Below are positions 13,220 to 63,758 of a stretch of DNA of 64,000 nucleotides, piece after piece (position 1 is the stretch's first letter; each line of letters begins with the position of its first letter). The DNA lies in NCBI GenBank assembly GCA_013239625.1, contig MU057344.1:3744976-3808975 (forward strand), given 5' to 3'. The notes beneath the pieces are model-generated. The model was not told the origin of the DNA. It saw nothing but the letters and a program-made list of their open reading frames with translations, and searched no databases. The DNA comes from Lama guanicoe (lineage: Eukaryota). A program made the translations under genes and the position numbers.

Positions 13220-14250
13220 GCCCGNNNNNNNNNNNNNNNNNNNNNNNNNNNNNNNNNNNNNNNNNNNNNNNNNNNNNNNNNNNNNNNNNNNNNNNNNNNN
13301 NNNNNNNNNNNNNNNNNNNNNNNNNNNNNNNNNNNNNNNNNNNNNNNNNNNNNNNNNNNNNNNNCCAAACCTCCGCCCCCCCGTCTCGACCCCCTTCCTC
13401 TTGGCCGCGTTCGCCTTGCTCCCCGCAAAGCCCGGGCTGCTCCGCCCACCGCGCCCCGCAGCCGGAGTCCCGCAGCCGGCCGAGGTGGCGGCGGCAGCGC
13501 CGGCGGCACGGCGGGGGGGCGGCACACATGCCCGGATTGTGACGTCCAGTCTGGTTGCTGTGGCAACCCCATCCCATCGTTCCGGCAGCGCGACTAGTTA
13601 ACAGCGGAGAACAAGTTGGGGGGACTAGTCCTGAGCCTCCGGGTGTGGGGTGAGGACAGGGCGTTCCGGCAGGGGGAGCCGTCGAGGCTCCCGCGCGCCC
13701 GGGGACCCGACGGCCAAGCGGGCTGCTGGGACTTGAGCGGGCCGGGCCCAGCCGAAGGCAGGGAAACCCCGGCCCGCGCACCCCGCACAGGGCCCGCTGC
13801 TGCCGCCTCCCCAGCCCGGGAAGGCCCTAGGCCCCAGGGTCCCCAAGTGCGCAGAGGCGGGGTCTCCGGGGCAGCGGGCGGCGAGTCCCAGCACTCCGCT
13901 CACACGCACCGAGACCCTCGTCGCCCCGCACCGGCTCCAGCCGCAACATGCTTCTAACCCCGTTTCCAAAGAGGATTAGAAGAAAAATGCGTTCCCTACT
14001 TGGGGAAGGGTCGCTCTGGAGAGAGCGAGTCAGATTCCTTCAGGAAAATCCGTGCGGACTGGCTCCGCCCTCACCTCATCGCACCGCGCTCCCACTGCCC
14101 ACGAGCCCTCTTCCAAAACGCCCCTCCCAGCGGGGCCCCCTTTATAAACACATCCAGGCCCCCGGGGGTGATACGGATCTTCGTTCTCTGTGCCCAAAAC
14201 TCTCGCTCAGAAGCGACACCTGTCGCGGAGCGGGAAGGAGCCGCGCCACC
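12500..14250. promoter_or_regulatory. CpG island / CHD5 promoter
   Basis: Dense CpG around exon 1; CRE-like TGACGTC at 13540-13546 and X-box GGTTGCTGTGGCAACC at 13553-13568. Confidence 0.85.
13225..13364. other. Assembly gap (140 N) in the CHD5 5' UTR
   Basis: Run of N. Confidence 1.
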
Positions 14251-18786: not shown

Positions 18787-25138
<6,352 letters not shown>

Positions 25139-26599: not shown

Positions 26600-28200
26600 C
26601 AAGTCTTGCACCTAGTTAACAATCTTTAGTGTGCGTTCTCCCGACAGATACGTCTCCTAACTCTGACCAAGCCTTGGGGCTTCCTGACAATCCTCTACAT
26701 GACTATTTCCCACCTCTGATCAGATTGCCAGCCCCTTGCCCCAAAACCTCCCTCTTAGCTGATGACTTCCATTACTCTTTTTTTGAAAACATAGAAGTAA
26801 TCCAAAGAGAATTTTCAGACACTCCCACCTTCATATCTAAGCGTCCAGCAACATCTTTACCCAACTCAGCCTTCCCTCCTGTTACTATGGAAAATGGGTC
26901 CTTGCCCCCACCTGAGGTCAACCCTGACATAAGGGCATTCATCTCGCATACTTTGGTCTACTTGAGGACATCACTCCAACAGTCCTTGCCCCCCACCTCA
27001 TGAAATCATCTATGTATCCTTTCTTCTGGATTTTCTCCATTAGCATGTAACCATTTTTTAAAATCTCCCATCTTAGCGGGGAGGGTATAGTTCAGTGGCA
27101 GAGCGCGTGCTTAGCATGCACGAGGTCTGGGTTCAATCCTCAGTTCCTCCTTTGAATTAATAAATAAATAAAAACCTAATTATCTCCCCATCCCCCCCAA
27201 AAAGATTGAGAAAATCTCCCATCTTAAAACGGAAAAAGCAATCTCTCAACTCCCAGCATTCCCTGTCAATTACCACCCCTTTTCTCTCTTTACTATGGAC
27301 TCAAATTTTGTGTCCCCCAAATTCATAGTTGAAGCCCTAGTCCCATCGAGGTCACTGGTGACATCCCCCTGCTAAGCACTGGGGTCGGGTCTCGCTCCTC
27401 CTCTTCCTGCTTCTGTTAGCATCGGACGCCACAGGTCACTCCCGCCTCCTTGATGACCCTTCTTCCCAGGGAGCCCCCAGCACCTCAGGCTCTCCTGTCT
27501 CTCCTCCCACCTCCCTGGCTGCTCCTTCTGTGTCTCCTTGCTGCTCCTTCCTCCTCCCTGGACTCAAGAAAGAGCCACAGGGCACAGAGCTCCTCTCGCC
27601 TTTACCTGCACTTGACCTTTTGCATGCCCTGGACTCATGCCCTTAAACACGACTCCCCCAGTCTGTGTGTGCAGCCTCACCCTTCCCTGGACTCCTGCAG
27701 TCTCTAGTCTAGAGTGTCAAGCTGACCACCATCACCTCCACAACACCACTCTCACCTCGCACCCTCCTCCCTACACTCAAACCCACAGCCCTCGCCCTCA
27801 CTGTCCCCTCTCCGCCCTTACCCACTCCATCCTCAGCCTCACCCCCACCCTGAGTCCCTTCATCTCCACCCACTTTGGTCTTTACTTTCCTCTAAATTTA
27901 TTCCAACTGCTGGGACCTTGTACTTGCTGTTCCCTCGGCTTTGAACCCTTCCTGGCTTTTCTTGGTTCTGATTTCTTCTCATCCTCCAGAGGCTCTGCCC
28001 ATGGTTACCTAGTGTGTCCTCAGCTCCACCCCCTCCCGGCTACCCTCCATCACATCATCTCACTTCTTTCCTTTGGAGCGTTTAACACAGGCTGTCATTA
28101 TTGGACTTGTTTATTTGTGTACTTGGCTGATGTGTTCCCTTCTCTGTGCAGGGCCCACGGCAGATGCTCAGTAACTATTACTCAAATTGATGAAAACCGG
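26600..28200. mobile_element. Degraded L2-like LINE fragments interrupted by a young SINE
   Basis: Pyrimidine-rich degraded sequence ending in the L2-like tail CAGATGCTCAGTAACTATTACTCAAATTGATG; boundaries rough. Confidence 0.5.
27076..27210 (+). mobile_element. tRNA-derived SINE (camelid vic-1-like) with a 16-bp target-site duplication
   Basis: A box TAGTTCAGTGG, B box GGTTCAATCC, A-rich tail. TSD AAAATCTCCCATCTTA at 27060-27075 and 27211-27226, with a TTTT/AAAA L1-endonuclease-type site. Confidence 0.9.
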
Positions 28201-36000: not shown

Positions 36001-38486
36001 GCCCTGGAGCTAAACCACATGCTTTCAGGGGCAGGAAGTCAGTTACCCACTAACCAGCCATGAACCCCCATGCTCTTCCCCTTAGCCCTTGCCTTTTCCT
36101 CACAGCTGCTAACGGACCCCAAAATTATACATCTGAGGTCAGGATTCAGTAAGTAGGATGCCTTCACAAGTCTCCCCTCACTCCTTACTTAGAGGTCACC
36201 ACTGAAACAGTTAGGATGTCTAAATGGTTTGAGGCTTGAGAGCAAGCATTTGAGGCCAACAAGACCTAACTCTCTGGCCGTGGCCCCCACAGCCCAGCTC
36301 CGTGACCTTCTCCAGCTGAAACAGGAGAATGCCTACCTGACCACCATCACCAAGCAGATCACACCCTACGTCCACTCCATTGCCAAGGTGAAGGAGCGGC
36401 TGGAGCCCAGGTGAGACCAGCGGGTGTTCCAAGGGAGCCAGGACACTTCCAAATGTGTGTGGGGAAAGCGCCACACATTTGGAAGCGCCCCACTCAGGGA
36501 AGTCCGTGGGCCGGGTTGTGAACGTTTAAACAGGGCACCTGGGCAGGGCAGGTGCTGGCCATCTGCAAAAACAGAATGAGTGGGCTGCTCTGAGTTCCCA
36601 CTTCTGGGTGCACAACGACCCCCCTCTCCACACCTTGGGGGTGCAATGAGGGTCCTCAGCGGATCCAGGCAGCAGGACACAGAGGAAAGAGAACTTCCTC
36701 AGTGCACAGTTTAACCTAGTCTAGACAGGAACCTCGACCAGGCTCTCAGCACCACACTTGGGCACTGAAAGGTGCTACAGTGCCAGAGGTTTTTCGGTGG
36801 CAGGTCCTCAATGTGCTGTCTCTCAAGTCTCTGGGCCCCAGGGTGGGCTGGTTGCCCTGGAGGGCCGGCGCAGAGTGGTCAGCCTGCGCTCTCCCTCCGC
36901 CACGCTCCAGGGGACTCCACTTGCCTGGCTCTGGGCAGAGATCTGATTCCTCTATCCGGGTTTCCTCTCTCTCGGCTTGGTGGAGCCCATCCCCCAAGCA
37001 GCCCTTGAGAAAGGAGGGACTTGTTCTGAATAGCACATGTCTGCAATATCTTTATTCCGCCTTCACACTTGACTGATAGTTTTGCTGCACGTTGAATTCC
37101 AGATGGAAATTCTTGATTGGAGATGATTCTCTTCCTTGAGAAGTTTGAAGGCACTCCGATTCTTAATCCTTGCACGGTGACCTACTAATTCTCCGTAGAA
37201 GCTTGTGGAATCTTCTCTGCTCCCAGTGTTCTGAAATTTCACATTGGTGAGGGTCTAGTTCCATCCACTGGATACTGGTGGGCCCTTTCAGTCTGGAAAT
37301 TCATGTCCTTCATTTTGGGCGTATTTCTTTTTGAACTGGTCAGTTGCTTTTCTCCACTTGCGGAATTCTCATTGGACACGGGCCTCCCTGAGCTGGCACT
37401 CTGACTTACCCTCCCCTTCCAGGCCTGTTTTCCATCTCTTTGCTGTTTTTTCCGGGAGATTTCCTCACTTATCTTCTAACTCTTCTATTCATTTCTTCAT
37501 TTTTGAAGAAAACTTCCAAGAGCTCTTTTAAACATTTTAAACTATAGGCATCTTTGTGCCCTCTTCTTGTTACACAGCGTCTTGTTGTTTCACGGACGCC
37601 CCTCGGGGGCTGATAGGTGTCTGCTTTCTCCCCCCCCACCCTAGTGGTGGTGGTTTTTGTTTTGTTTTTTTAATGGAGGGACTGGGGATTGAACCCAGGA
37701 CCTCGTGCGTGCTAAGCACACAGTCTACCACTGAGCTATGTCCCGAACCGCCTCTGCTTTTATTTTTTTTAAGTTTCCTTCTCCCTGAAGTCTATTTCCT
37801 CCAAGTTATGTTTTGTTTGTTTAGGTTTCTATCTTCCATGTTAAAGGCTTTTGTCAGATGGTCAGGAAATCTTTGATTACGTGCTCATGTTAGGAGTTGG
37901 GGCTGGGGTGGGGTTGTGTAGGGCAGGATGGACGCTCTGAGCCCATGGGTGGTGTTTCAGTGTAAGGGATCTGTGTGGTCAGAGTTTTTTATTTTGCTTT
38001 TCTTTTTTTTTTTTCATTTCCTCAATGTCAGTTTTAGATCTCTTCCCGGTTTCCTTCCTGGAAGCATCTGTACGCACACCTGGAGCATCTGTATGCACAC
38101 CTGGTTTTCTGGTTCTCACCTGTGTGCTGTACCCTCCAGAGACTAACGCTGCAGACTTCTGAGGGGTGTGGGGCCAGCATGCTCAGAGGCAGGGATCTTG
38201 ACCTTCATCGTCCTATTTCAATCCCACTCAGTCCTGCAGAGGCAACGGGGCTGCCCATTCCTGAGCCCCCTAAGGATTCTGGTGGGAATTGGCCTCAGCT
38301 TGCTCTGTGCACTTTGAATTCAGGCTTCCCGGGTCTGCTAACTCAGTGACCACTTGTCCAGTTGCTCTCCAGCCTCCAAAATTTTGGTGTTAGCCTTTCC
38401 TGCCCTCAACCTGGAGAGGCTTTTCTTTTACCCCCTCGTTTTGGTCCCTTTACTAGTTTTAGTGAGTTTGGGGAAGAAGGAGAATT

Positions 38487-38517
<31 letters not shown>

Positions 38518-41495
38518 ACAATTGCCACATTAATCCAAAACTGTCAAACCTCCTTTTAAGTGACTATTTTAACATGTCACACTGAGAAGTTCCACTCCTC
38601 ATACCTTCTGCACAAATTCTGATCAATCTTTGTCTATCCAGGACTAGTTACGCTGTTTCCTCCCAAGCTGACATTCAAAGCAGTTTACTCTAGATACTGT
38701 GTGATTCCATTTATAAAACCTCAAAACCAAGCGAACTAACGTCTCATGTTAGCATTTGGGATGGTGATTATCCTGGAGGGCCTCTGGGTGGAGGTGACGT
38801 CCTGTGTGCCCAGACTAAGCCGTGCCCTTATCATTTGTGCCCTTTCCCTTCTGTGTGCTCTGCTTTGTGAGCAGCTGGCTTCCAGTAGTGTGCTCCTGTC
38901 CGCCCACAAGGGGCAACACCTGGGGGAGTCACGTCTCTGTGGGGAAATGGCATCTGTGGTCAGTTTCAGCAACTGGAAAGGCGCTCGGGCTGGAGCCAAG
39001 CTCCTGGAGGTTTGGGGTGAGCAGGGAGGCTGCCTCCAGCCCTCTTCCTGGCACCACTTCCTAGGTGTCTGGAGTTGCCCTCTGCTTCCTCCCCTCCCAC
39101 TGCTGGCCACGCCCCCCGCCCACCAAGAATCCACTCATCAGTGACCTTTCCATCCCTTGGCCTCAGAGGAGCAGCACTGAGGAGCCTAGACCGTCCATCA
39201 CCTTCACCGTGCTCTGCTCTTGCTTCAGAGACCCTCCACACTCCGTTTCCCTCCTGCCTCCCCAGCTGTTCCTTCAGCCCCTTTGGCTTGGCTCTGCCTC
39301 CTTGGCTCAAGGCCCAGATGTCAGTTCTCCCCAGGGCTCAGCCCCAGGCATACTCCTCCCTCTGCACCCTCTCCTTCAGGGGCTTCACCCGGTCTCCTGG
39401 CTTTAAAACCCCTGTGGTGGTGCAGACGACCCCCAGTCCCTGTCCCCAGTACGGACCCACCCAAGCTCCAGACTCATCTCCAAGTGTCCCTTCCTGGGAG
39501 GGGGTGTCTCTGCTTAGACGGGTACCTCAAGTCCTACAATGGCCCCAGGACTCAATTTCCTCCCCTGGAACATGGTCCTCCTGTTTCATCTCAGTAAATG
39601 CACCAGTCACCCAGATGCTCCTGGAAAAAGCCGGGGAGACATCTGGATTCCTTTCCTCACCCCTCTTCCAACCCATCCCCAGATCCCGCTGGCTCCACTG
39701 TCTCACCCACCTGCTTTGTCTCCACTGCAGCCCCCAATCCAAGCCACTGTCGTCAGCCCCAGCCCCGGCCCCTCCAGCACGTCACATAGCCTATTGTGCT
39801 GGGCCCCGATAGCCTTTCCGGGACCCTCTCCACACCCCGGTCACCACGGCCTGTCAGTCCCTGGAGAAGCTGGGCTTGCTCTACTCCCAGCCTCTGCAGG
39901 AAGGGTTCTTGCTCCAGGTGGTTCCACGGATGCTCGTCACTCAGGTCGCAGCTTGAATGTCGACAGGCAGGCCTCCCCAGACCACCCTGGTGAAAGCAGG
40001 CCTCGCTTGCTGTCACCATCCGGCTCCATGTGTCCTTCCCAGCCTTGGCGTGTCTCCGCGACTGGAACGCAGCTTCCGCGGGGCCAGGGCCTGGCCTCCC
40101 CCATCCACTGCCATGGCCCTCGCCCACAGCAAATATCTGAGGCCCAGAGCTCGAGGCAGGCCCTTGAGTGTTAGCACAAGGCTGTGCAGTGAGCTTAGGG
40201 GCACGCGGCGGGCCACCTCTCCCACCGCCCCGGTTCCCAGTAACTGCTGTCTCTCGCCCAGGTTTCAGGCACCCGTGGATGAACAGTCGGACCACCTCCA
40301 AAACACGTATGACGACGGCGTGAATGGCGAGGCCCAGGCCAGGTGGAGCAAGTCTTCCCACAGCAAACAACTTCATCTCAGGGACACACACAACGACAAA
40401 GACAGAGCCCAGCTCTGCGGCCTCGGCAGGGCCTCAGTTTGTAAAACACGGGGTCGGAGGGGCTCTTAATCTACACAGTGCCTTCAAACATGTGACCTGG
40501 TAGATGACACATGTGGCTGATAGACCTGACCCACGTTTTATAACTTGGGGTGGCTGTGTCTGCCGGCCGCCCCGCTCACACCACTGAGCACGCAGGCTGT
40601 CACCCCGCGTCACTCAAACCCCCTTACGTGAGAAAAAGTGACTGAGGGTTATTTATTTGTGTGAGAGCGTTACTATTCACTGGAGCCACAGTGTTTGCCA
40701 AAACACTTGCCAGGGGGAGAGAAGAATGTGCGGTAACAGACATGTCACCGTCACAGGCTCATCTTTCAGTGTTGCACTCTCAGTAAAGTGTTAGTCACGG
40801 GTTGGAGAACAGAGTTGTAGAAAGCCGCAGCTAGGAGAGCCTCGGGGTGCGGGGAGGTCTGCAGCCATAGAGAGCCACAGCGTGCTTGGTGACAGAGCAG
40901 AAACTTGTCCCACCCTCCCAAGCACCTCTTTTAGCCCAGATGCTTCAAGGGAGGGTCGATTCAAAGCACTGTCACCACGAGCTAAGAGACCAAACTGCTG
41001 CTGCTTTGGCAACTGAACATCATCAGAGGGGGGAGGGTATAGCTCAAGCGGTAGAGCACATGCTTAGCATGCACAAGGTCCTGGGTTCAATCCCCAGTAC
41101 CTCCTCTAAAAATAAACCCCCACCAAAAATTTTTTTTAAAAAATTAGAAATGAGATAACACTTTAGGAGACAATGTAGTTCTGGTTCAGAAGATATGCTC
41201 ATCTACCGGTGCCTTCCAGAAGGGCTGGCTGTTCCGAAAGCCCTTGCCCGAGTGGACTTCAGCACTGGGATGCAGCGAGGTGGGGGGAGCAGACAGAAAC
41301 TCACGTTAAGTTTGTTTCTTTAGGAATGATCCAGTAAGTGTCTTGGAAAAGAGAGAGAAGACCTCAGAGCCTAAAGGGAACAGCCGGGCTCTGAGCAGCC
41401 TCACAGATGAGCCTTCACTGAAAAACAAAGATTCTCATAGACCCAAACCAAAAAATGGGGGTGACATCCCCACGCGGAGAGAGCGCCCAGCCTAG
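29850..41495 (+). CDS. RNF207: RING finger protein 207 (RING, B-box, coiled-coil), 634 aa; exons 29850-30040, 30694-30826, 32026-32170, 32266-32347, 32422-32497, 32574-32699, 33106-33152, 33430-33502, 33574-33642, 34073-34141, 34230-34327, 35105-35291, 35460-35645, 35918-35969, 36293-36410, 40262-40342, 41324-41495
   Basis: Exon lengths sum to 1905 nt with one continuous frame. Starts MSGAIFAPLEGP, RING CPLC..CFHHFCAGC..CPLC, B-box CNTCGQPLCARCRDETH, ends GDIPTRRERPA-TAG. Confidence 0.97.
30557..30640. promoter_or_regulatory. Candidate muscle/cardiac enhancer (MEF2 x2, TEAD, ETS) in RNF207 intron 2
   Basis: ATATTTATAG 30557-30566, CTATTTTTAG 30600-30609, TGGAATGT 30618-30625, CAGGAAGTG 30632-30640. 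Confidence 0.55.
37050..37900. mobile_element. Old L1M-like LINE fragment in RNF207 intron 16
   Basis: T-rich degraded sequence (GGGCCCTTTCAGTCTGGAAATTCATGTCCTTCA...) typical of antisense ancient L1; boundaries rough. Confidence 0.55.
37653..37750 (-). mobile_element. tRNA-derived SINE (camelid vic-1-like), antisense to RNF207
   Basis: Reverse complement reads CATAGCTCAGTGGTAGA...GGTCCTGGGTTCAATCCCCAGT plus an A-rich tail. Confidence 0.9.
38491..38516. repeat. (TG)n microsatellite
   Basis: About 13 TG units. Confidence 0.95.
41028..41145 (+). mobile_element. tRNA-derived SINE (camelid vic-1-like) in RNF207 intron 17
   Basis: GGGGAGGGTATAGCTCAAGCGGTAGAGCACATGCTTAGCATGCACAAGGTCCTGGGTTCAATCCCCAGTACCTCC plus an A-rich tail. 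Confidence 0.9.
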
Positions 41496-45796: not shown

Positions 45797-48700
45797 TCAT
45801 AGCTCCACCTTGACCCCCTTTATAAAAGGCAGGCCCGTGGGCACTCGCTTCTTATACTCCAGGTACTCCTCTCCAAAAAAGTGGATCAGTGAGATTTCCT
45901 CCTCTTCTGTCCGGTCGCGGAAGAATCGCCACACGGTCAGAGCGTAGCTCACGCCGCAGATGGGGTTACACAGCATGACCTGTCGGAGGAACACGAGGTT
46001 AGGGGGTCCAGGTCAGTGTGATTCGATTCCGTGAACTTTAGCGGCCTCTGTGGCTCTCCCACACGCACAGGGAAAGTGCCTGACAGACTCTCCAAATGCT
46101 ACCTCTGAGCGCCAGGGCCAGGGCGCCACTAACCAAAATCACATCATCACTTTCACAACAGAACTAAACATTCATCACCATTTCTTTTTTTTCCATATGC
46201 TTTTCTGTTGTTCTTCTTACCTGATACCTAAACATTAAAAAGAAAGATCAACCTCTTGGATTTCAACCCTCAGGTAGGGGTGACAGCAACTCCTCCCCCA
46301 CCTCAGTGTATGAATCCCCAATTCCATGCACCACCGCCTTCCCGAGGGGCTCCCAGCACATTCCTTCCTGTCCTGGCCACATACACCCTGACGCGCTCCC
46401 TCCAACCCCACAGCTGCCCGGCCCCCACAGGCTCCCCTGTACTCAACACACTGCTACCCAGCTGAGCTGCCCAAACCACTTCTTTCATCAGCTTGCGCCC
46501 CTGCTCCACCAAGGCCTAAACCACATCTCCCCAGGATGGCTTTGGAACCCGGGCAAGCAGCTCCTTGGCCCACTTCCTCTGCGCAGCTCAGGGAGCCCAC
46601 TGACCACAACCCCCCAACTCCGGTGGACCCTTTCGGGACGCATGTCTTCCCCAGGTGGGTGATTCCGCTGAGAGGGCCAGGCACATGCCCCTCCTTCTCA
46701 TTCTCACCAGTTTACTGAGCGCCTGTTGTGTTCCCAACACACGCCAAGCTCATCACGACCACCACCAAGCCATTCAACCCCCAGAGCAAGCCTGCGGGAG
46801 CACCGCTGTCCCCACTGAACTCATGAGGGGAGGGAGGCCAGTCGGTGAGTGTCAGAGCCAGGACGGGCCCAGCCAGTGACCCCAGAGCCTGAGCCGTCAC
46901 GGCTGGCAGACACGGGCAGTTTCCAGCGTGCCCTGTAGCGGGCTTTCCCAATCTCAGGCCACAACCTGTTACGGAGCCATGGAATCAATTCAGTGCACCA
47001 TAAACAGCTTTACAAATAACAGTAAGATAGAAAACAGAGTGCTGTGTACACAGTAAGGGTAAATGTCTGTTCCAGGAAAGATTTATTCCGTTTTTATACA
47101 AACGTGTGTGCTGGGTCATGGTGTAAAAAGATCTATGGTCCAAGAGGTATGAAAAACTCTTTAGTCCTAGAGCGCTGAGTTTATTAGTTAGCATTTACGG
47201 CAAATTACATGATTCAACTACAATCAGTTTGTTCCCAGGGAATGTGACTGCCAGTACGGGAGTCTTAAGTTTCAAAAATGCAAGTTTCAAAATAAATGCT
47301 GTGTAGTAACCTACCCCTACCATACCACTGGGGTCACTAGAGCGTCCCCAGGCACCATGAACCTCAGTGGGATGCCTGGGGGCCCAGAATGGATTTTCCC
47401 AAACAGGTGATGAGTCTTCTAAGCTCTATGCACATTCTCTGGCCAAGACCTTCTAGGACTAAGAGAACAGACTCCAGAGACAGTTGTCAAGAAACACGGC
47501 TCGATCTGCAGCCTGAGACAGAACAAGCCTCCTTCACTCATGTTCAGCCTGACACATGACCTTGACCTCATCAACAGCAGCTTCTAATGAAAACCAGCTA
47601 AGCTGCCTAGGGAGTGGCAGAGGGCCCTCACCCCACTGATCTGAGTAACTCAGATCCAGATCTAGGGTAAAGAGGCAGGAGAGAGGCACGACAGATGGAG
47701 TGACTGCACCCAGATTCACCAAGTGTTTACAAGTTTAGGACTCCCAGATCTTAAGTATACAGCAAAAAAAGAAAGTTAAGAACTAAATCAATTCTTTTGG
47801 CTTTAACACTGGAAACACGGCAGGGAACCCTTGTACCTCTTTAAGAGGACCAACAACTCTGTAAATACACTGAAACCCACTGAAGTGTACACTTGGAAAT
47901 GGTATGGGAATTATACGTCAATTGAAAACACATTTTAAAGAACTTTAAATGAGACCAGTATTGCATCTGATACTATACCTGGGTTCCGATGCTCCAGTAA
48001 AACCACCCAACATAGGAAGGATGCCGAAACCAAGCGTATACTCCGCTGGTCACCAGAGTGTGAGTTTCTGATTTTTCATTCTGCACCACGTGGTTGAAAT
48101 TGGAACCAGCTGTAAACATCGCTGCCTTCCTCAGACATTCTCCAAAGACCACCATCAGCAGCCCCGTGGTGCTGAGCCAGGTGATCTGCTTCAGCTCTGC
48201 CAGGGAGATGAGGTGACAAATGGGAAGTGAAGACCCCGGATTGTTGGGTTCCCCCTTTAGATGCTTAAAATGAACCAATTTTCCCAAATATAGGAACACT
48301 AGAAAACATGCTAGTGGGCAGCCAGCACTTGTCATCGCATTAAAATTTAACTATAAGCAAAACACACTCCCCTAAGTTGCGCTGTCCATCCATGTACTTT
48401 GAAGCTCCCAAAGCGCAGTCAGAGCCTCGTGGCAAAGAGCTGATGGGCTCTCAGTCCACATCGCCCTGCCACACGCTCCCACCCTGCCTTTGGGGACAAG
48501 GTCAGCTAAGTGAGGCAGAGGTGGAGCCAGCGTTTCCTGCCTTAGCCCTTTACCAAATCCTGGGAACTACATACACTTTCTTTAACTTGCTGTGGAAAGT
48601 TCGGTGTGAGGGTGGGTTCCAGATGCAGTGGTTTTTTGCTAATGAAATCTTCACAAGAACACAGAAAATGAATAGATCCAAATCTCCTGACTATAAAACT

Positions 48701-51226
48701 GGGATTAGTTTTATCAAAAGTTGGGGCTTCACGTTAGATGGTGCACTACGTTATTCAGGGCTTAAAGCGAAAGGTCAACGTGTCCTCCATTCAAAATCCA
48801 GAAGCAGAATTCACAAGCAGAGCCTGGCCGTTATAAAGAGCTTAGTGAGGACAGAGGTCTGGGGAAAGTCACTTGGGAGATTAGACCTGAGAAGTGCACC
48901 CACGTCACTGTCCTCAGGCACCCCGTGGGAGCCACCTGTCCCCCCGCCAGAAGGGTAAGTAGGGCACACTGACCTGGCCAAAAGATATTTTCGAGTGTGA
49001 ACTCTATCCAAGAAGAAAGGGCAGCTACTGTATACTCCAGACTGTGATTCAGGAGAAAGGAATCCAAGGACAGACTCTTGGGATTGTTGACTGCCGTGAC
49101 TAAGTATTCGGAATAGTGGAACAGTGACAGGGAGCACATGTACCTATTTAAAACCAAAACGGAAGAGAGGTAAGCTGGGGCAAGGGAACCAACTTAGCCA
49201 GAAGTCAAAGTACAGATTTGGTCTGAACTGTCCCTGAATTCTATGATGAGGTCCTGTTGTCACCTGTCTGAGAGTGGACATCAGGCACCCACATGTAGCA
49301 TCCATCACTCCTTGAGGTTTGCAGAAAGTGGGGTTTTAAAGGGACCACGTTTTTGCATGTCACAGGAGGGGGGAAAAAAACAACAACAACAAAAAAAAAA
49401 AAACATAGGCTAGGAAGGCATTATGGGCCTTCAGCCTTTTTTTAAAAAAAATGACACTACACACAGGAAAACATGAAAGAGGGAAATATCAAAATAAAGT
49501 AGTGATGTATGTCAAATACAAAAATTCAAAAAACTGAAATAATTCTGGCAAAGAAGGATTAGATGGCTCAGAGTACTGATAATAGGAGATAAAGCTTTTT
49601 ACCTTGAAGCCACTGGTTCATATCCAGGTCAGGGACTAGAAGGCTCAAGGGACTGAAATCATAGTGTAGGGAAAAATCCTACACTGGCCGTGGGGGATGC
49701 ACTAGATGTGACCTAATAGAAACGGAAAAGGCCTGTTGAAGACGAGCCAGAGCCTTGCCCCTTCCTGTCACTGAGGACCTGCACCCTCTTCTGGGAAGGG
49801 CTGGTCACATTACTCAATGGGCTGCAGCTGCAGAGCGCCTATGGGGAGGGTGCCAGGGAGACCTGTTTCCACCTGCAGCAGAAGGAACCAATGGGCACAA
49901 GCTGTCAAGGTCCGAGATGTGGGAATCTAGGTGGACGCTAGAGATCTCATTTCCTTAGAACCCTCAATAGCCCCCAGCCAGCCAGCCAGCCAGCCAGCCA
50001 GGGGTGCAGAAACATCCCTCCTGACCCTCTGATCCACCCACCCTCACCTCAAAACTATCATTTCCAAAGCACTCCTTACCAGCCAAAGTGATTCCAAGAA
50101 GACTGGCTAAAACTTAGCAGCACTCCACAGCCAAACACAAAGCCAAGGAAACAGGCTCGGATGGCTATCTGAAACGGACCCAAAAGAAGCTCAGTCACCT
50201 GGCTGTTCTCAGAGCACACATCCCACTTCCTGGGATAAGCAGGCCACTGGCAAGTACGGAGAGCCAATTTGCTCAGAGATTAACAGGGTGAAGCAGGACT
50301 GCCCGGGTTCCGACCCCAAGCCCGCCCCTCTCTGGCTCTGTGGCCTTTAGGAAGTTACTTAACCTCTCTGGACATCGGTTTCCCCATCTACACAACGGGG
50401 GTGGCCAACAGTACCCGCCTCGGAGGATTACCCACGTAAAACACTTAAGAGTAAGCGCTACATAAGTTGCAGCTACCATTACTTATGATTATTGTTATTC
50501 TGGGCTGTGGGAAAACTGCGTAAACCTAGCTTATTGGCCGGATTCTCTCAAGTCCACGCAGCGAATCGGGTCGGGGCACCCGGGATTCTGCGCCCAGCCC
50601 CCTGCACGTAACTGCGGGGCCTTTGACCTCAGACTTGACAGCAGGTAGTTCTCCACACCTTAAATTACATAAAAGAACTCGTGGGCCCGCTCACTCCCCG
50701 CCCCACGCGCATCAGCCGCACATGCTGAATCGCACCAACTGCAGTTTCCCACCCACTCTTCCAGGTAGAGGGGCCCCACGCCCCCCCCAAACTGGAGAGG
50801 AGGGGTTCCTCCTGCCACCTGAACTTGATGCTGCTCAAGAACACGGCCGGGGGAGGCAGCCCCTCTCGCGGGCCGGGCTCTCAGCCGACCCAGACCTCGA
50901 CACCCGGAAGACAGTGCCCACTCCCCGCCCCCGGCCCGCCGACCCTCGCCCTGACCCCCGCCCCGGCCCCGGTCCTCGCCCCGGCCCGGCCCGGCCCGAA
51001 CCTGGTAGCGCGGCGGCCGGTAGAGCAGCAGCAGCAGCGCGTTGAGCCCGGCCACGTAGAGCGCCAGCCCGGTACGGCCCTGCAGGCCGGCGCGCGTGAG
51101 CAGCGGCAGCGCGGGCGCCGAGGCCCCCAGCAGGAAGGTAGCGAGCACCGAGGCGCCCAGCAGGAAGGTGGCGAGGCTGAGGCGCGCCTCGGAGCCCGGC
51201 GGAGCCCGCGCCGCGCAGCCCGCCAT
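45797..51226 (-). CDS. ICMT: Protein-S-isoprenylcysteine O-methyltransferase, 294 aa; exons 51226-51002, 50168-50080, 49143-48974, 48196-47979, 45979-45797
   Basis: 225+89+170+218+183=885 nt, GT-AG. Starts MAGCAARAPPGSEARLSL, contains HTLVTSGVYAWFRHPSYVGWF and RTEEEEISL, ends GLPFIKGVKVEL. Confidence 0.98.
49555..49690 (+). mobile_element. Ancient tRNA-headed SINE relic, LF-SINE-like, in ICMT intron 2 (antisense to ICMT)
   Basis: GGATTAGATGGCTCAGAGTACTGATAATAGGAGATAAAGCTTTTTACCTTGAAGCCACTGGTTCATATCCAG has A/B-box-like ends and aligns by eye to the recalled LF-SINE 5' consensus. Confidence 0.55.
50330..50495. mobile_element. MIR SINE fragment in ICMT intron 1
   Basis: AAGTTACTTAACCTCTCTGGACATCGGTTTCCCCATCT core and ATT-rich tail. 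Confidence 0.8.
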
Positions 51227-51830
51227 GGCGCAGGGCGGCGGACGAGCAGGCGCTGGCGCCGGCTGTAGCCCGGGGAAACCCGCCCGCCGCGCCTGCGCAC
51301 TGCGCCGCCGACGCCGGCCGGGAAGGGCAGCCGCCCGGACCTGCGCGCCGCCCGCGAGCTCTCGCGATACTGCCGCGCGGCTGGGTTGGGGCCCGAATTT
51401 GGCGGGAGCGCCCCGCCCCGCGGCCCCGCCCTGCCGTCCCCAAGGGACACCTGACCCAGTCCGAGAGGCGAGCGGCAGGTGGCGGCCGGGGCCGCGGGGC
51501 GCCCGGGTCCTGGGCCGAGAAGTCGCCGCCGGCGTCTGCCAGGAGTCGGCCCCAAACTCCAGAATGTCCCTGTCCGGTGAAATCTGAAGGGACCCCGCCC
51601 TCGTCGGCCCCGTGCGGTCCTCCCAGAAACTGACACCTTTTGGCTCTCGGACTCGGGTGGGCGAGCCACCTCCATCCGACCTCGCCCCGCGGGGTCCTTG
51701 CGCAGGGACTGCCCGCCCCCGCAGGGTTTCGGAGTGCTCGCTGGGTGCCCAGGCTGCGGGGACACTGCCCTTGGGGCAGCCTGAAATCGCAGCACTGGCC
51801 CCCACGCAGCGAGATGACCACCCACTGCAG
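50550..51830. promoter_or_regulatory. CpG island / ICMT promoter
   Basis: CpG-dense, with GC boxes and NRF1-like GCCTGCGCA upstream of the ATG. Confidence 0.85.
51111..51170. repeat. 30-nt coding tandem duplication in ICMT exon 1
   Basis: GCGGGCGCCGAGGCCCCCAGCAGGAAGGTA / GCGAGCACCGAGGCGCCCAGCAGGAAGGTG, 26/30 identical. Confidence 0.95.
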
Positions 51831-58269: not shown

Positions 58270-59473
58270 ATGGGCACTGAGCTCGAGACCCAGGGCAGCT
58301 CTGGCGGCCCCGCTGGCAACTTCCGCAAGGTCTGGGGCCCCGAGGGATGCGGGGGTGGCGGTGGGGGGCAGAGGGCAAGAGGGCTGAGACCCAACTCTCT
58401 TACTGCCACTCATTCACAGATCTCCAAGCCGCTGATGGAGAAGAAGCGACGGGCGCGCATTAATGTGTCTCTGGAGCAACTCAAATCATTGTTAGAGAAA
58501 CACTATTCGCACCAGGTGAGACACGGGGATGTGGTGGAGGTAGGCGGTGATACGATCCCCAGCCTCATCCCCTGGAACCTGGGCTGCTGTGCTATAAGCC
58601 TTTTCCACGGATCTGTAGATCCGGAAACGCAAGTTGGAGAAGGCAGATATACTGGAGCTCAGCGTCAAGTACATGAAAAGCCTTCAGAACTCGGTGCAAG
58701 GTAGACCGGGGGTGCCTGGGGTGGGGCGAGGAGCGAGTGTGTATGTATGTGTGGGAAATTGTGGGATCAGAGCCATGCATTCTACGAAGCCAGATGAAGG
58801 AGGGATGAATGGAGAGGAAAGCTCAGGGCAGTGGGCAACTAAGTGAAGAAGGGGCCCCAGATCGCTCTAAGTGGAGAGGCAGCAAAGGCCTGGCTGGCTG
58901 TGAAGTTGTAATCGTGTGGGCGAAGGTCTGGACTCCGAGGGGATTTTCGAGTTGCCTCCCTTCCCTTTTCTTCCCTCCCCTCCGCTGCACACTTCTCCCC
59001 TCCCTTTTTCTCTCTCCTCTTTACATCTCTTCTTTCTTCCTCCTCTCCCCTGTTCTCCCCTCCTTTCCACATTTCTTTTGTCCGCTCCCCTCCCCCTAGG
59101 GCTCTGGCCGGTCCCCAGCGGAGCCGAATACCCGTCGTGCTTCCGCGGCTGTCTGCCCGGCGTTAGCCAGCTTTTGAGGCGCGGAGAGGAGGGCTGCGGC
59201 GGCCTGCGCTGCCCCCTGGTGCACGAGCGCGCGGGTGGCAGCACCATGGACAGCGCCAGCTCCGGCCCTGAGGCGCCAGGCAGGCGAGGCCCCTGCGCCT
59301 CCGCGGTTTGGGTCCCCGTTCCCGCCGCCGGCGGCTCGCCGTCGCCGCCACCCCGGCTTCTCTTCTCTGGAGGCCTTCCCAGCCCGTCCACCAGCGTCCC
59401 AGCGCCGCAGTCGGCGTCTCGTCGCTTCGCCGACAGCCCGGGGCCGGAGCTGCGCTTGTGGCGGCCCTGGTGA
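58270..59473 (+). CDS. HES3: Transcription factor HES-3 (bHLH, terminal WRPW); exons 58270-58329, 58420-58515, 58619-58700, 59100-59473 (203 aa; 178 aa from the internal ATG at 58435)
   Basis: 60+96+82+374=612 nt. FRK|ISKPLMEKKRRARINVSLEQLKSLLEKHYSHQ|IRKRKLEKADILELSVKYM ... LRLWRPW-TGA. Confidence 0.96.
59237..59257 (+). promoter_or_regulatory. REST/NRSF RE1 element within HES3 exon 4
   Basis: GGCAGCACCATGGACAGCGCC, 18/21 to the consensus TTCAGCACCACGGACAGCGCC, with both half-site cores and the 2-nt spacer intact. Confidence 0.85.
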
Positions 59474-60764
59474 GGCCTAGGCGCAGCCTGGGACTCAAGG
59501 GGGCCCTCGTCTGGCCTGGGAACGCAAAGACTATTTTGAACGCCAGAACCCTAGTCATCGGCTCTGTTCCTGGGACGGGGTGGCCTGGAGCGTGCCGCGT
59601 ATCCGCGAACTCGGGGAAATACACGAAGCCACAGTTGCACCGGGTTCTATTCGTCTAGACATAACTCACCCCCGCCCCAACCCTACCCACTTAGGCTGGA
59701 CCCACTTTCTCCTCCCAGCCTCTAGTGGGGCGGGGAGGGGCTGTCCCGGGCTGCGCTCCTTTCCCAGGGCCCCTGGAGGGCAGCCCGCCCCCACCCCGCG
59801 GCCGCGGCGCGGTGGGAAGGTCGCCGTCGGCAGCGGCGCAGAGCGGACCCCTCGCAGCGAGGAGAATTACTGCCCCGCCCCAGCCCATTCAGCCGTCCTG
59901 GGACGCCCGGTTCCCACCGGCACAAAGCGCGCCAGGCCCCGCCCCGCCGGCGAGGGACCCCCTCCACCCCCCCCCGCCTCACAGAAACCCCCTCCCTAGC
60001 GCTCCTGCCCTGAGGCCAGCTCAGCGCTCCAGCCCCGCCCTGTGAGATGCTCCGCCCACCGCCCCGGCCACCCGACGCCCCGCCCTGCGCGGCTCCTAGT
60101 GGGAAGCCCGCGAACAGTCTACCAGCTTGAGGTTTGCTAGCGCAACCCCCAGCTCCTCTCAAGGGAGAGCTCACTCCTTTCCCCTCGGAAAAGGCCCCCT
60201 GCCCGTAGCCCGGCCTCAGGCAGCCCGGTCCCTTCCCCTGCCCCGCAGTCTCCGCCTCCTGAACTTTGGGGCCCCCAGGGAGCCCACCACCCTTGACAGC
60301 TCTTGGTGCGCTCTGCGACGGTTTATTCGTCAGAAAATGAGGTCATTGCTCGGAGTCTAACTTGAGGGTCTCGGAGTCTCGGCCTGCAAGGGGCAGCCTG
60401 GGGGTCGAGGACAGGAATCCTGCGCTGAGCCTACGAAGAGATCCCAGCACCTCCTCTTCCAGCTTGAAGTTAAGAATAAAGAGTGCGAACTTGTGAAATG
60501 GGTATAAAGATGCCACGAAAGTTCTCATTTCTCTCATAATGCCAGCTTAGGTAAATCTTTCTGAACTACAAATATCAACTTCATATGAAACATTTCTCGT
60601 TTTGGGCTGCCCCTACCTTGCCGTGTGCTAAACTCGTCCTAGTCGTACCCCGGGGAGAGGAAAGCCTTGCTCCCCTACCCAACCCAGCGGGCTCTGCCAC
60701 GCTGGGGAGCGGGTCCCCCCAGCGGAGGTCCCAGGTCTCAGCTTCCCGGCACTAATCCTCCTTC

Positions 60765-63213: not shown

Positions 63214-63758
63214 CTAGGACGCCGAGCCCAGCGAGTCCGAGTGCAGTGTGACGTAGCCCGACGACTCGGAGGGAGAGCTCAAGAAGCTGCTGGTGCTGCC
63301 GCCGCCGCCGCCGCTGCCGCCGCCCGCCGCGCGCCCGCCCCCGGGCTCGCCCCACGACGCACTCAGGCCGGTCCGCAGGGTCTGTGCGTGCGCNNNNNNN
63401 NNNNNNNNNNNNNNNNNNNNNNCAAAGGCGTCGGCAGCAGCGAGGCCGAGGCGCAGCGGGCGCCGGGACCGGGACGGCGGCGCGGGCTGCCGGGGGGCGA
63501 AGTGGGGGTGCGGCGCGGGCCGTCGTCCAGAGCCGGGGGGCGGAGCGACAGTAGGCTCTCTGCCGAGCGACGGCGCGGGCGGAAGGGGGGCGCGTCCTCC
63601 GCGAAGGCCAGCAGGCTGCTGCGGGGCCGGTCGGGCCCGCCGGGCAGCACCAGGGCGGCCAGGTCCTCGCCGGAGCCCCAGCGTGGCAGGAACGTGGGCA
63701 ACTGGACCGCAGCCCACACGTCCGCGTCGTCGTGGGAGAAACGTCGCGTGGGCGGGAC
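63214..63758 (-). CDS. GPR153: Orphan G protein-coupled receptor 153, last coding exon (cytoplasmic tail), gapped
   Basis: Acceptor GACAG|, then [18 protein letters not shown]...[11 protein letters not shown]...[N gap]...[11 protein letters not shown]...[24 protein letters not shown]; synteny with HES3. Confidence 0.92.
63394..63422. other. Assembly gap (29 N) inside the GPR153 last exon
   Basis: Run of N. Confidence 1.

Follow-up and report, generated by a model that had tools for sequence, protein, structure and literature searches.

We found that the first coding exon of ICMT (isoprenylcysteine carboxyl methyltransferase) in a guanaco (Lama guanicoe) assembly contains a 30-nt in-frame tandem repeat, at 51111-51175 of the window, by which we mean the whole stretch of DNA analyzed (64,000 nucleotides of contig MU057344.1). 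The repeat is confirmed in the assembled sequence, and its presence in the animal is a separate matter: we consider it somewhat better than an even bet that the repeat is a false tandem duplication arising from assembly. This weight, and the slightly lower one left for a real repeat, are matters of judgment and not of computation.

Judged from the sequence, the gene itself is an ordinary mammalian ICMT with an intact spliced frame and whole catalytic exons. It lies on the minus strand in five exons with AG acceptors and GT donors, which join to 885 nt encoding 294 aa with no internal stops. Exon 1 (CDS 51002-51226, 225 nt, 75 aa, 78% GC) encodes the predicted helices M1 and M2, and its product gave no match in a Pfam search. 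It is followed by exon 2 (50080-50168, 89 nt), exon 3 (48974-49143, 170 nt), exon 4 (47979-48196, 218 nt), which holds the first part of PF04140, and exon 5 (CDS 45797-45979, 183 nt with the stop), which holds the rest. The exon 4 and exon 5 pieces score 82.3 and 27.7 bits, respectively, both above the curated cut-off of 24, and the exon 4 piece matches the beetle ICMT structure 5V7P at E 1e-32. According to the available sections of PMC8358657, the substrate-coordinating arginines of the beetle enzyme are Arg173 and Arg246; alignment to that enzyme places their equivalents at Arg184 in exon 4 and Arg257 in exon 5. The single-unit orthologue from Pongo (P0014) has 284 aa and aligns with one 10-residue gap, and outside the insert there are 2-7 differences from the Camelus ferus, vole, and Pongo proteins. 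An earlier note on this DNA had named the gene as ICMT, with an exon 1 of 225 nt and a product of 294 aa; the spliced frame, the PF04140 matches, and the 284-aa single-unit orthologue all agree with it.

Tandem Repeats Finder described the repeat as having a period of 30, 2.2 copies, 88% matches, and no indels. In codon register on the minus strand, the units are 51172-51143 and 51142-51113. Unit 1 (51143-51172, codons 19-28) encodes ATFLLGASVL and is, at the protein level, the single unit of other placental mammals; unit 2 (51113-51142, codons 29-38) encodes ATFLLGASAP and is the extra copy, so that the exon 1 translation reads MAGCAARAPPGSEARLSL-ATFLLGASVL-ATFLLGASAP-ALPLL... The units differ at 4 of 30 positions (unit positions 3, 18, 26, and 29, which in copy 2 are window positions 51140, 51125, 51117, and 51114). 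The differences at 51140 and 51125 are synonymous, those at 51117 and 51114 give V>A and L>P, and unit 2 carries both amino-acid changes. The repeat finder and the codon-register comparison thus confirmed the description in the earlier note of an in-frame 30-nt repeat with units 4/30 apart, V>A and L>P included. A chance repeat is unlikely: the best 30-nt tandem match in the surrounding CpG island is 27, versus a maximum of 23 in 300 dinucleotide shuffles of the island, none of which (0/300) scored at least 26.

To place the insertion among relatives, we measured the segment between the EAR and GLQG motifs in 23 proteins, leaving out of the count P0043 (chimeric), P0073, P0075, and mammal-like hits without a species name. 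The segment has 31 residues here versus 21 in all 13 mammals, from platypus to camel (Camelus ferus, two bats, four rodents, a tenrec, two primates, a lion, an opossum, and a platypus). It has 29 residues in a turtle (Emydura, P0042); of eight distant relatives, seven have 29-30 and one has 22. Throughout the unit, the residues of C. ferus are the plain mammalian ones. The narrow range proposed earlier, that of a lineage-specific insertion that is not widespread, therefore stands, with a single unit in 13/13 mammals including C. ferus. Vertebrate-like sequences fall into two length classes of the M1-M2 connector, 21-22 and 29-30 (P0042, P0066-P0072, P0074), and the distant relative P0074, which is short like the mammals, hints at more than one length change. 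The excluded P0043 (Ictidomys, named OSTC-like) joins an ICMT exon-1-like start to unrelated sequence, as a chimeric gene model or a retrocopy near ICMT exon 1 might.

Searches for a second carrier of the repeat returned none. With the exon 1 peptide as the query, the best identity was 87%, the value expected of a single unit, and it was exceeded by 0 of 42 longer-protein hits (761 candidates) and 0 of 22 near-length hits (30 candidates). None of 25 HMMER hits over 50% representatives matched all 75 residues ungapped at high identity, and the best 11 of the 25 placed the 75 query residues on 65. An ESM Atlas search gave no usable hit. These results are weak evidence, because full-length carriers would sit inside 90% clusters and because a camelid intron read-through query, with 0 of 2453 candidates scored, left the search with no camelid positive control.

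One line of evidence against a straightforward biological origin is the divergence of the two copies. Since C. ferus has one unit, the copies should be at most about 4% old in divergence. This figure comes from window positions 40295-39963, which appear mostly intronic to the neighboring gene and served as a rough neutral yardstick: the stretch translates as the alternative C terminus of the C. ferus ICMT isoform P0019 with 9 of 111 residue differences and one gap, and simulation puts its DNA divergence from C. ferus at about 4% (best fit d 0.04, plausible range 2-6.5%), a distance that by itself would mark the source as a camelid other than C. ferus and most likely a South American one. The split between Old and New World camels is dated to about 16.3 million years ago in the available sections of PMC12127551. 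At d 0.04, four or more differences in 30 would be expected with a probability of 0.031 (between 0.003 and 0.13 across the plausible values of d), falling to 0.003 if only one of the copies could change, so that, judged on this yardstick, the 13% divergence between the copies appears too high for an event after the split from Camelus (P about 0.03). Under plain slippage the divergence is not compatible with the age, and only error-prone synthesis would rescue the fit. Both amino-acid changes fall in unit 2, and C. ferus has the same residue at each of the other 65 positions encoded by exon 1. The earlier note had taken the four differences as an argument against an assembly error. We read them the other way: they exceed what the time since the Camelus split allows (P 0.03, or 0.003), and the false duplications described in the available parts of PMC8081667 and PMC5632298 stem from under-collapsed, error-bearing sequence.

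On the minus strand, the yardstick stretch (39963-40295) encodes the counterpart of the alternative C-terminal end of isoform X1 (P0019) of C. ferus ICMT and lies antisense in an RNF207-like gene; in that isoform the last helices would be absent, and its C terminus is probably a read-through prediction.

Divergence of this size could also mean that the repeat is old, having arisen in the camelid stem, diverged there, and then been cleanly deleted in Camelus. Such a history would account for the 13%, and the microhomology described below would allow an exact deletion, but it needs two events, and the plain mammalian residues of C. ferus at every unit position speak against it. We regard it as highly improbable.

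The genomic context of the repeat points toward the assembly. Exon 1 lies in a CpG island (50801-51600) with a mean GC of 0.78, the highest of the 12 islands in the window. The window has only two N runs (13225-13364 and 63394-63422), and both fall inside CpG islands; such islands make up 10.9% of its length, giving a chance of 0.012 for this placement. Three islands are at least 650 bp long with a GC of at least 0.76, a cut-off picked after the table was seen; two of them hold a gap, and the third holds the ICMT repeat. No N lies nearer to the repeat than 63394, and a filled boundary is not visible from the sequence. As for the gaps themselves, that at 13225-13364 (140 N) is immediately 5′ of a CHD5-like start codon in a 1.5-kb CpG island, and that at 63394-63422 (29 N, minus strand) is in the last coding exon of a GPR153-like gene. 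There the open frame before the gap seems to be one base short about 10 nt from the gap edge, and the gap seems too short for the missing coding stretch. This edge points to error-prone gap edges in the assembly; a search of the PDB for a reference for its frame gave no match.

Precedents for such an error have been published. Homotype false duplications arise near contig boundaries or from sequencing errors, via under-collapsed sequence (PMC8081667, available sections), and short-read assemblies have yielded a spurious 22-bp tandem repeat within a coding exon as well as base-call errors in GC-rich sequence (PMC5632298, available sections). South American camelid references are largely built from short reads with gap filling, as described in the accessible parts of PMC6598621 and PMC7331169. 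We infer low coverage, a join, and miscalls as the parts of a false duplication here. Short or intermediate reads would have given poor coverage of exon 1, in its 78% GC island; an overlap of about 30 nt would have existed between two contig ends, or between a gap-filling extension and the sequence it was meant to reach; and one end, a low-quality tail with four miscalled bases, would have left the overlap uncollapsed. The ends would then have been joined, possibly on a 5-nt microhomology, and the animal would encode an ordinary 284-aa ICMT. We favor this explanation on account of the excess divergence of the copies, the confinement of the changes to unit 2 at the amino-acid level, the gaps in comparable islands, the 21-residue segment in 13/13 mammals, and the published precedent.

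Several observations count against an assembly error. The length of the repeat is a multiple of 3, which has a 1 in 3 chance, and the repeat is flanked by the 5-nt word CTCGC (51171-51175, minus strand), which recurs 30 nt on at 51145-51141. A third CTCGC-like copy, at 51115-51111, has one mismatch, and the breakpoint ambiguity amounts to 3 left plus 2 right bases. A 5-nt microhomology is found at only 2.5% of 7140 arbitrary placements in exon 1, 3.6% of 2363 in-frame placements, and 8.3% of 145 placements of length 30. Of the four differences, three are transitions (P 0.11 if errors were uniform), and the differences (3, 18, 26, and 29) are not crowded toward the junction. The site itself shows neither a gap nor an indel, whereas most false duplications in the available sections of PMC9516828 are separated by gaps, and the other GC-rich coding exons of the window are open on reading by eye. 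Outside the CpG islands found, the window has three further tandem repeats of complex sequence (19032-19065, 21244-21273, and 38060-38101), each with two copies of 15-21 nt that mismatch at 12-14%, so that diverged duplications are also ordinary features of this genome. Finally, an imperfect inverted repeat (51142-51198; arms 51142-51163 and 51177-51198, 77% complementary and 13 nt apart) overlaps unit 1 with one arm, though its folding is not beyond that of shuffles (z −1.51; 15 of 200 shuffles as good). With folding within the shuffle range, we rejected a hairpin as the cause of the repeat. Inspection by eye likewise led us to drop the idea that the inverted arm had templated the four differences, as one change improves pairing and one worsens it.

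It is quite conceivable, at rather less than even probability, that the repeat is real, young, and nearly neutral. It would then have arisen after the Camelus split by slippage between the two CTCGC words 30 nt apart, beside the imperfect hairpin, with the new copy coming from error-prone synthesis or drifting fast, and it may be one animal's allele or common to South American camelids. The microhomology, the reading frame, and the absence of a gap all agree with such an origin, and in humans some three quarters of short indels are attributed to slippage (PMC3638132, available sections). The catalytic exons are intact, with both arginines present. On the other side, four substitutions in 30 nt would be needed within a lineage about 2% deep, and the failure to find a second record with the repeat (0/64 above 87% identity and 0/25 with HMMER) weighs weakly against it.

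If the repeat is real, its structural effect is predicted to be mild. An AlphaFold2 model of exon 1 alone gave helices at residues 12-35 and 44-69 with a connector at 36-43 (mean pLDDT 66.6); a full-length model of a single-unit orthologue gave helices at 12-35 and 38-58, with a mean pLDDT of 38.1 that makes it usable at most for helix limits. Residues 16-33 differ from C. ferus by only two changes (L30T and P31F). M1 is therefore predicted to keep its start, end, and register, with M1 built in the old register from unit 1 plus the first half of unit 2, while the extra length would go into the connector (the 31-residue segment), which residues 36-43 (SAPALPLL) would extend. The N terminus of ICMT is cytosolic, which would put the connector on the luminal side; the active site is on the other side, within the cytosolic leaflet between M4 and the C terminus, and the enzyme would be expected to work as usual. 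There is room for a small effect, as the M1-M2 pair is packed onto the catalytic core and contributes to activity. By analogy with the turtle and the seven distant relatives, whose connectors are of nearly the same length, the extended connector is likely to be tolerated.

The earlier note had gone further, suggesting that TM1 is lengthened or substrate access altered and that the helix-breaking proline is compensatory. Neither suggestion is supported: the modeled helix at 12-35 is unchanged and the connector lengthened, away from the active site, whose place is on the cytosolic leaflet, from M4 to the C terminus (PMC8358657, available sections), and a proline is no rare outcome of random four-base changes. 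The adaptive version of a real repeat, in which selection in copy 2 favored V>A and L>P for restoring the length of M1 or changing substrate access, does draw on some evidence, as each of the two changes reduces hydropathy and is located in the predicted connector. Over starts 17-25, 19-residue Kyte-Doolittle means are 1.9-2.15 for a perfect duplication and 1.5-1.9 for the observed sequence, which is turtle-like. However, in 20,000 trials less those with stops, random four-base changes gave a proline in 26% and an equal drop in hydropathy in 26%, on which grounds we rejected selection on the proline. Two synonymous changes of four are as expected (P 0.41), exon 1 is outside PF04140, and the predicted loop is partly caused by the proline itself, so its position is not independent evidence. 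We consider adaptation very improbable, and even when the adaptive and older readings are combined, they remain improbable.

By translation, we take the neighboring genes to be CHD5, RPL22, RNF207, HES3, and GPR153. The order RNF207-ICMT-GPR153 agrees with consecutive rows in the available supplement of PMC12127551. In the HES3-like gene (59100-59520, plus strand), the last exon ends right after the WRPW motif, and an upstream in-frame ATG near 58270 suggests a longer first exon. Human HES3 has a few more residues past WRPW. Three tRNA-like elements, at 41033-41105 (+), 27081-27151 (+), and 37674-37745 (−), are 83-84% alike, score as Rfam tRNA, and are most likely a tRNA-derived SINE family, presumably of the camelid Vic-1 type; the accessible part of PMC8605555 gives no family name for them.

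Literature searches on ICMT with camelids, covering openly accessible papers, did not turn up the insertion. In the all-camelid comparison of PMC12127551, ICMT is absent from the main text; the six supplementary files covered, with the Old World but not the New World camel indels among them, give it only as a one-to-one orthologue and not as an indel gene. The RefSeq transcripts assigned there to the ICMT orthogroup include XM_006196606.3 (alpaca) and XM_010957606.1, XM_031463930.1, and XM_032495056.1 (camels). In a supplementary table of PMC7331169, apparently an introgression scan from its fd and LAI columns, one row names ICMT, for a chromosome 13 segment of 100 kb (fd 0.329, LAI 0.125).

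As an artefact, the repeat would illustrate a pitfall of genome scans: when a GC-rich first exon holds copies that have diverged yet stay in frame, they mimic evolution but also fit an uncollapsed overlap. If it is real, it represents a length variant, not reported in anything our searches covered, of a highly conserved enzyme that acts in RAS and lamin maturation, and it would probably be harmless, given that other vertebrates have a connector of such size. Its lesson would concern the tolerance of the M1-M2 pair, and it would reveal no new system. It is unlikely, though not negligibly so, that the repeat is both real and fixed in South American camelids, which would make this the sole mammalian ICMT found here with a longer M1-M2 connector. 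In that event, connector length would have been regained by one error-prone slippage copying ten M1 codons, and its length and make-up would converge on the connectors of turtles and other distant vertebrates. The lineage could then serve to test, in nature, whether connector length is tolerated or put to use by the N-terminal helix pair that is specific to animals, and the repeat would be a dated example of a tandem duplication that carried several substitutions from the start.

The guanaco gene has the five exons of mammalian ICMT and both catalytic arginines. The C. ferus protein (P0019) has 2 aa differences from it over the four shared exons, and the Pongo protein (P0014) has 7 aa differences over its whole length; none of the 13 mammals has ten extra residues after position 28. 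The ICMT of Tribolium castaneum (PDB 5V7P, 5VG9) has eight helices and an active site between M4 and the C terminus (PMC8358657, available sections). Its sequence match begins only at about residue 45-47, so that M1 and the connector are not mappable by sequence, and we rejected the beetle structure as a guide to M1. Turtle ICMT (P0042) and the distant relatives P0066-P0072 likewise have a longer M1-M2 connector rich in Pro, Ala, Leu, and Gly, but the 8-9 residues that they have in excess come after the LPLL motif and do not repeat M1, whereas the extra 10 residues here precede LPLL and are copied from M1 codons. With the homotype false duplications of draft assemblies (PMC8081667 and PMC5632298, in their available sections), the guanaco repeat shares a GC-rich first exon, a short diverged tandem copy, and gaps in similar sequence; unlike them, it has no adjoining gap, is much shorter than the read length, is flanked by microhomology, and is in frame.
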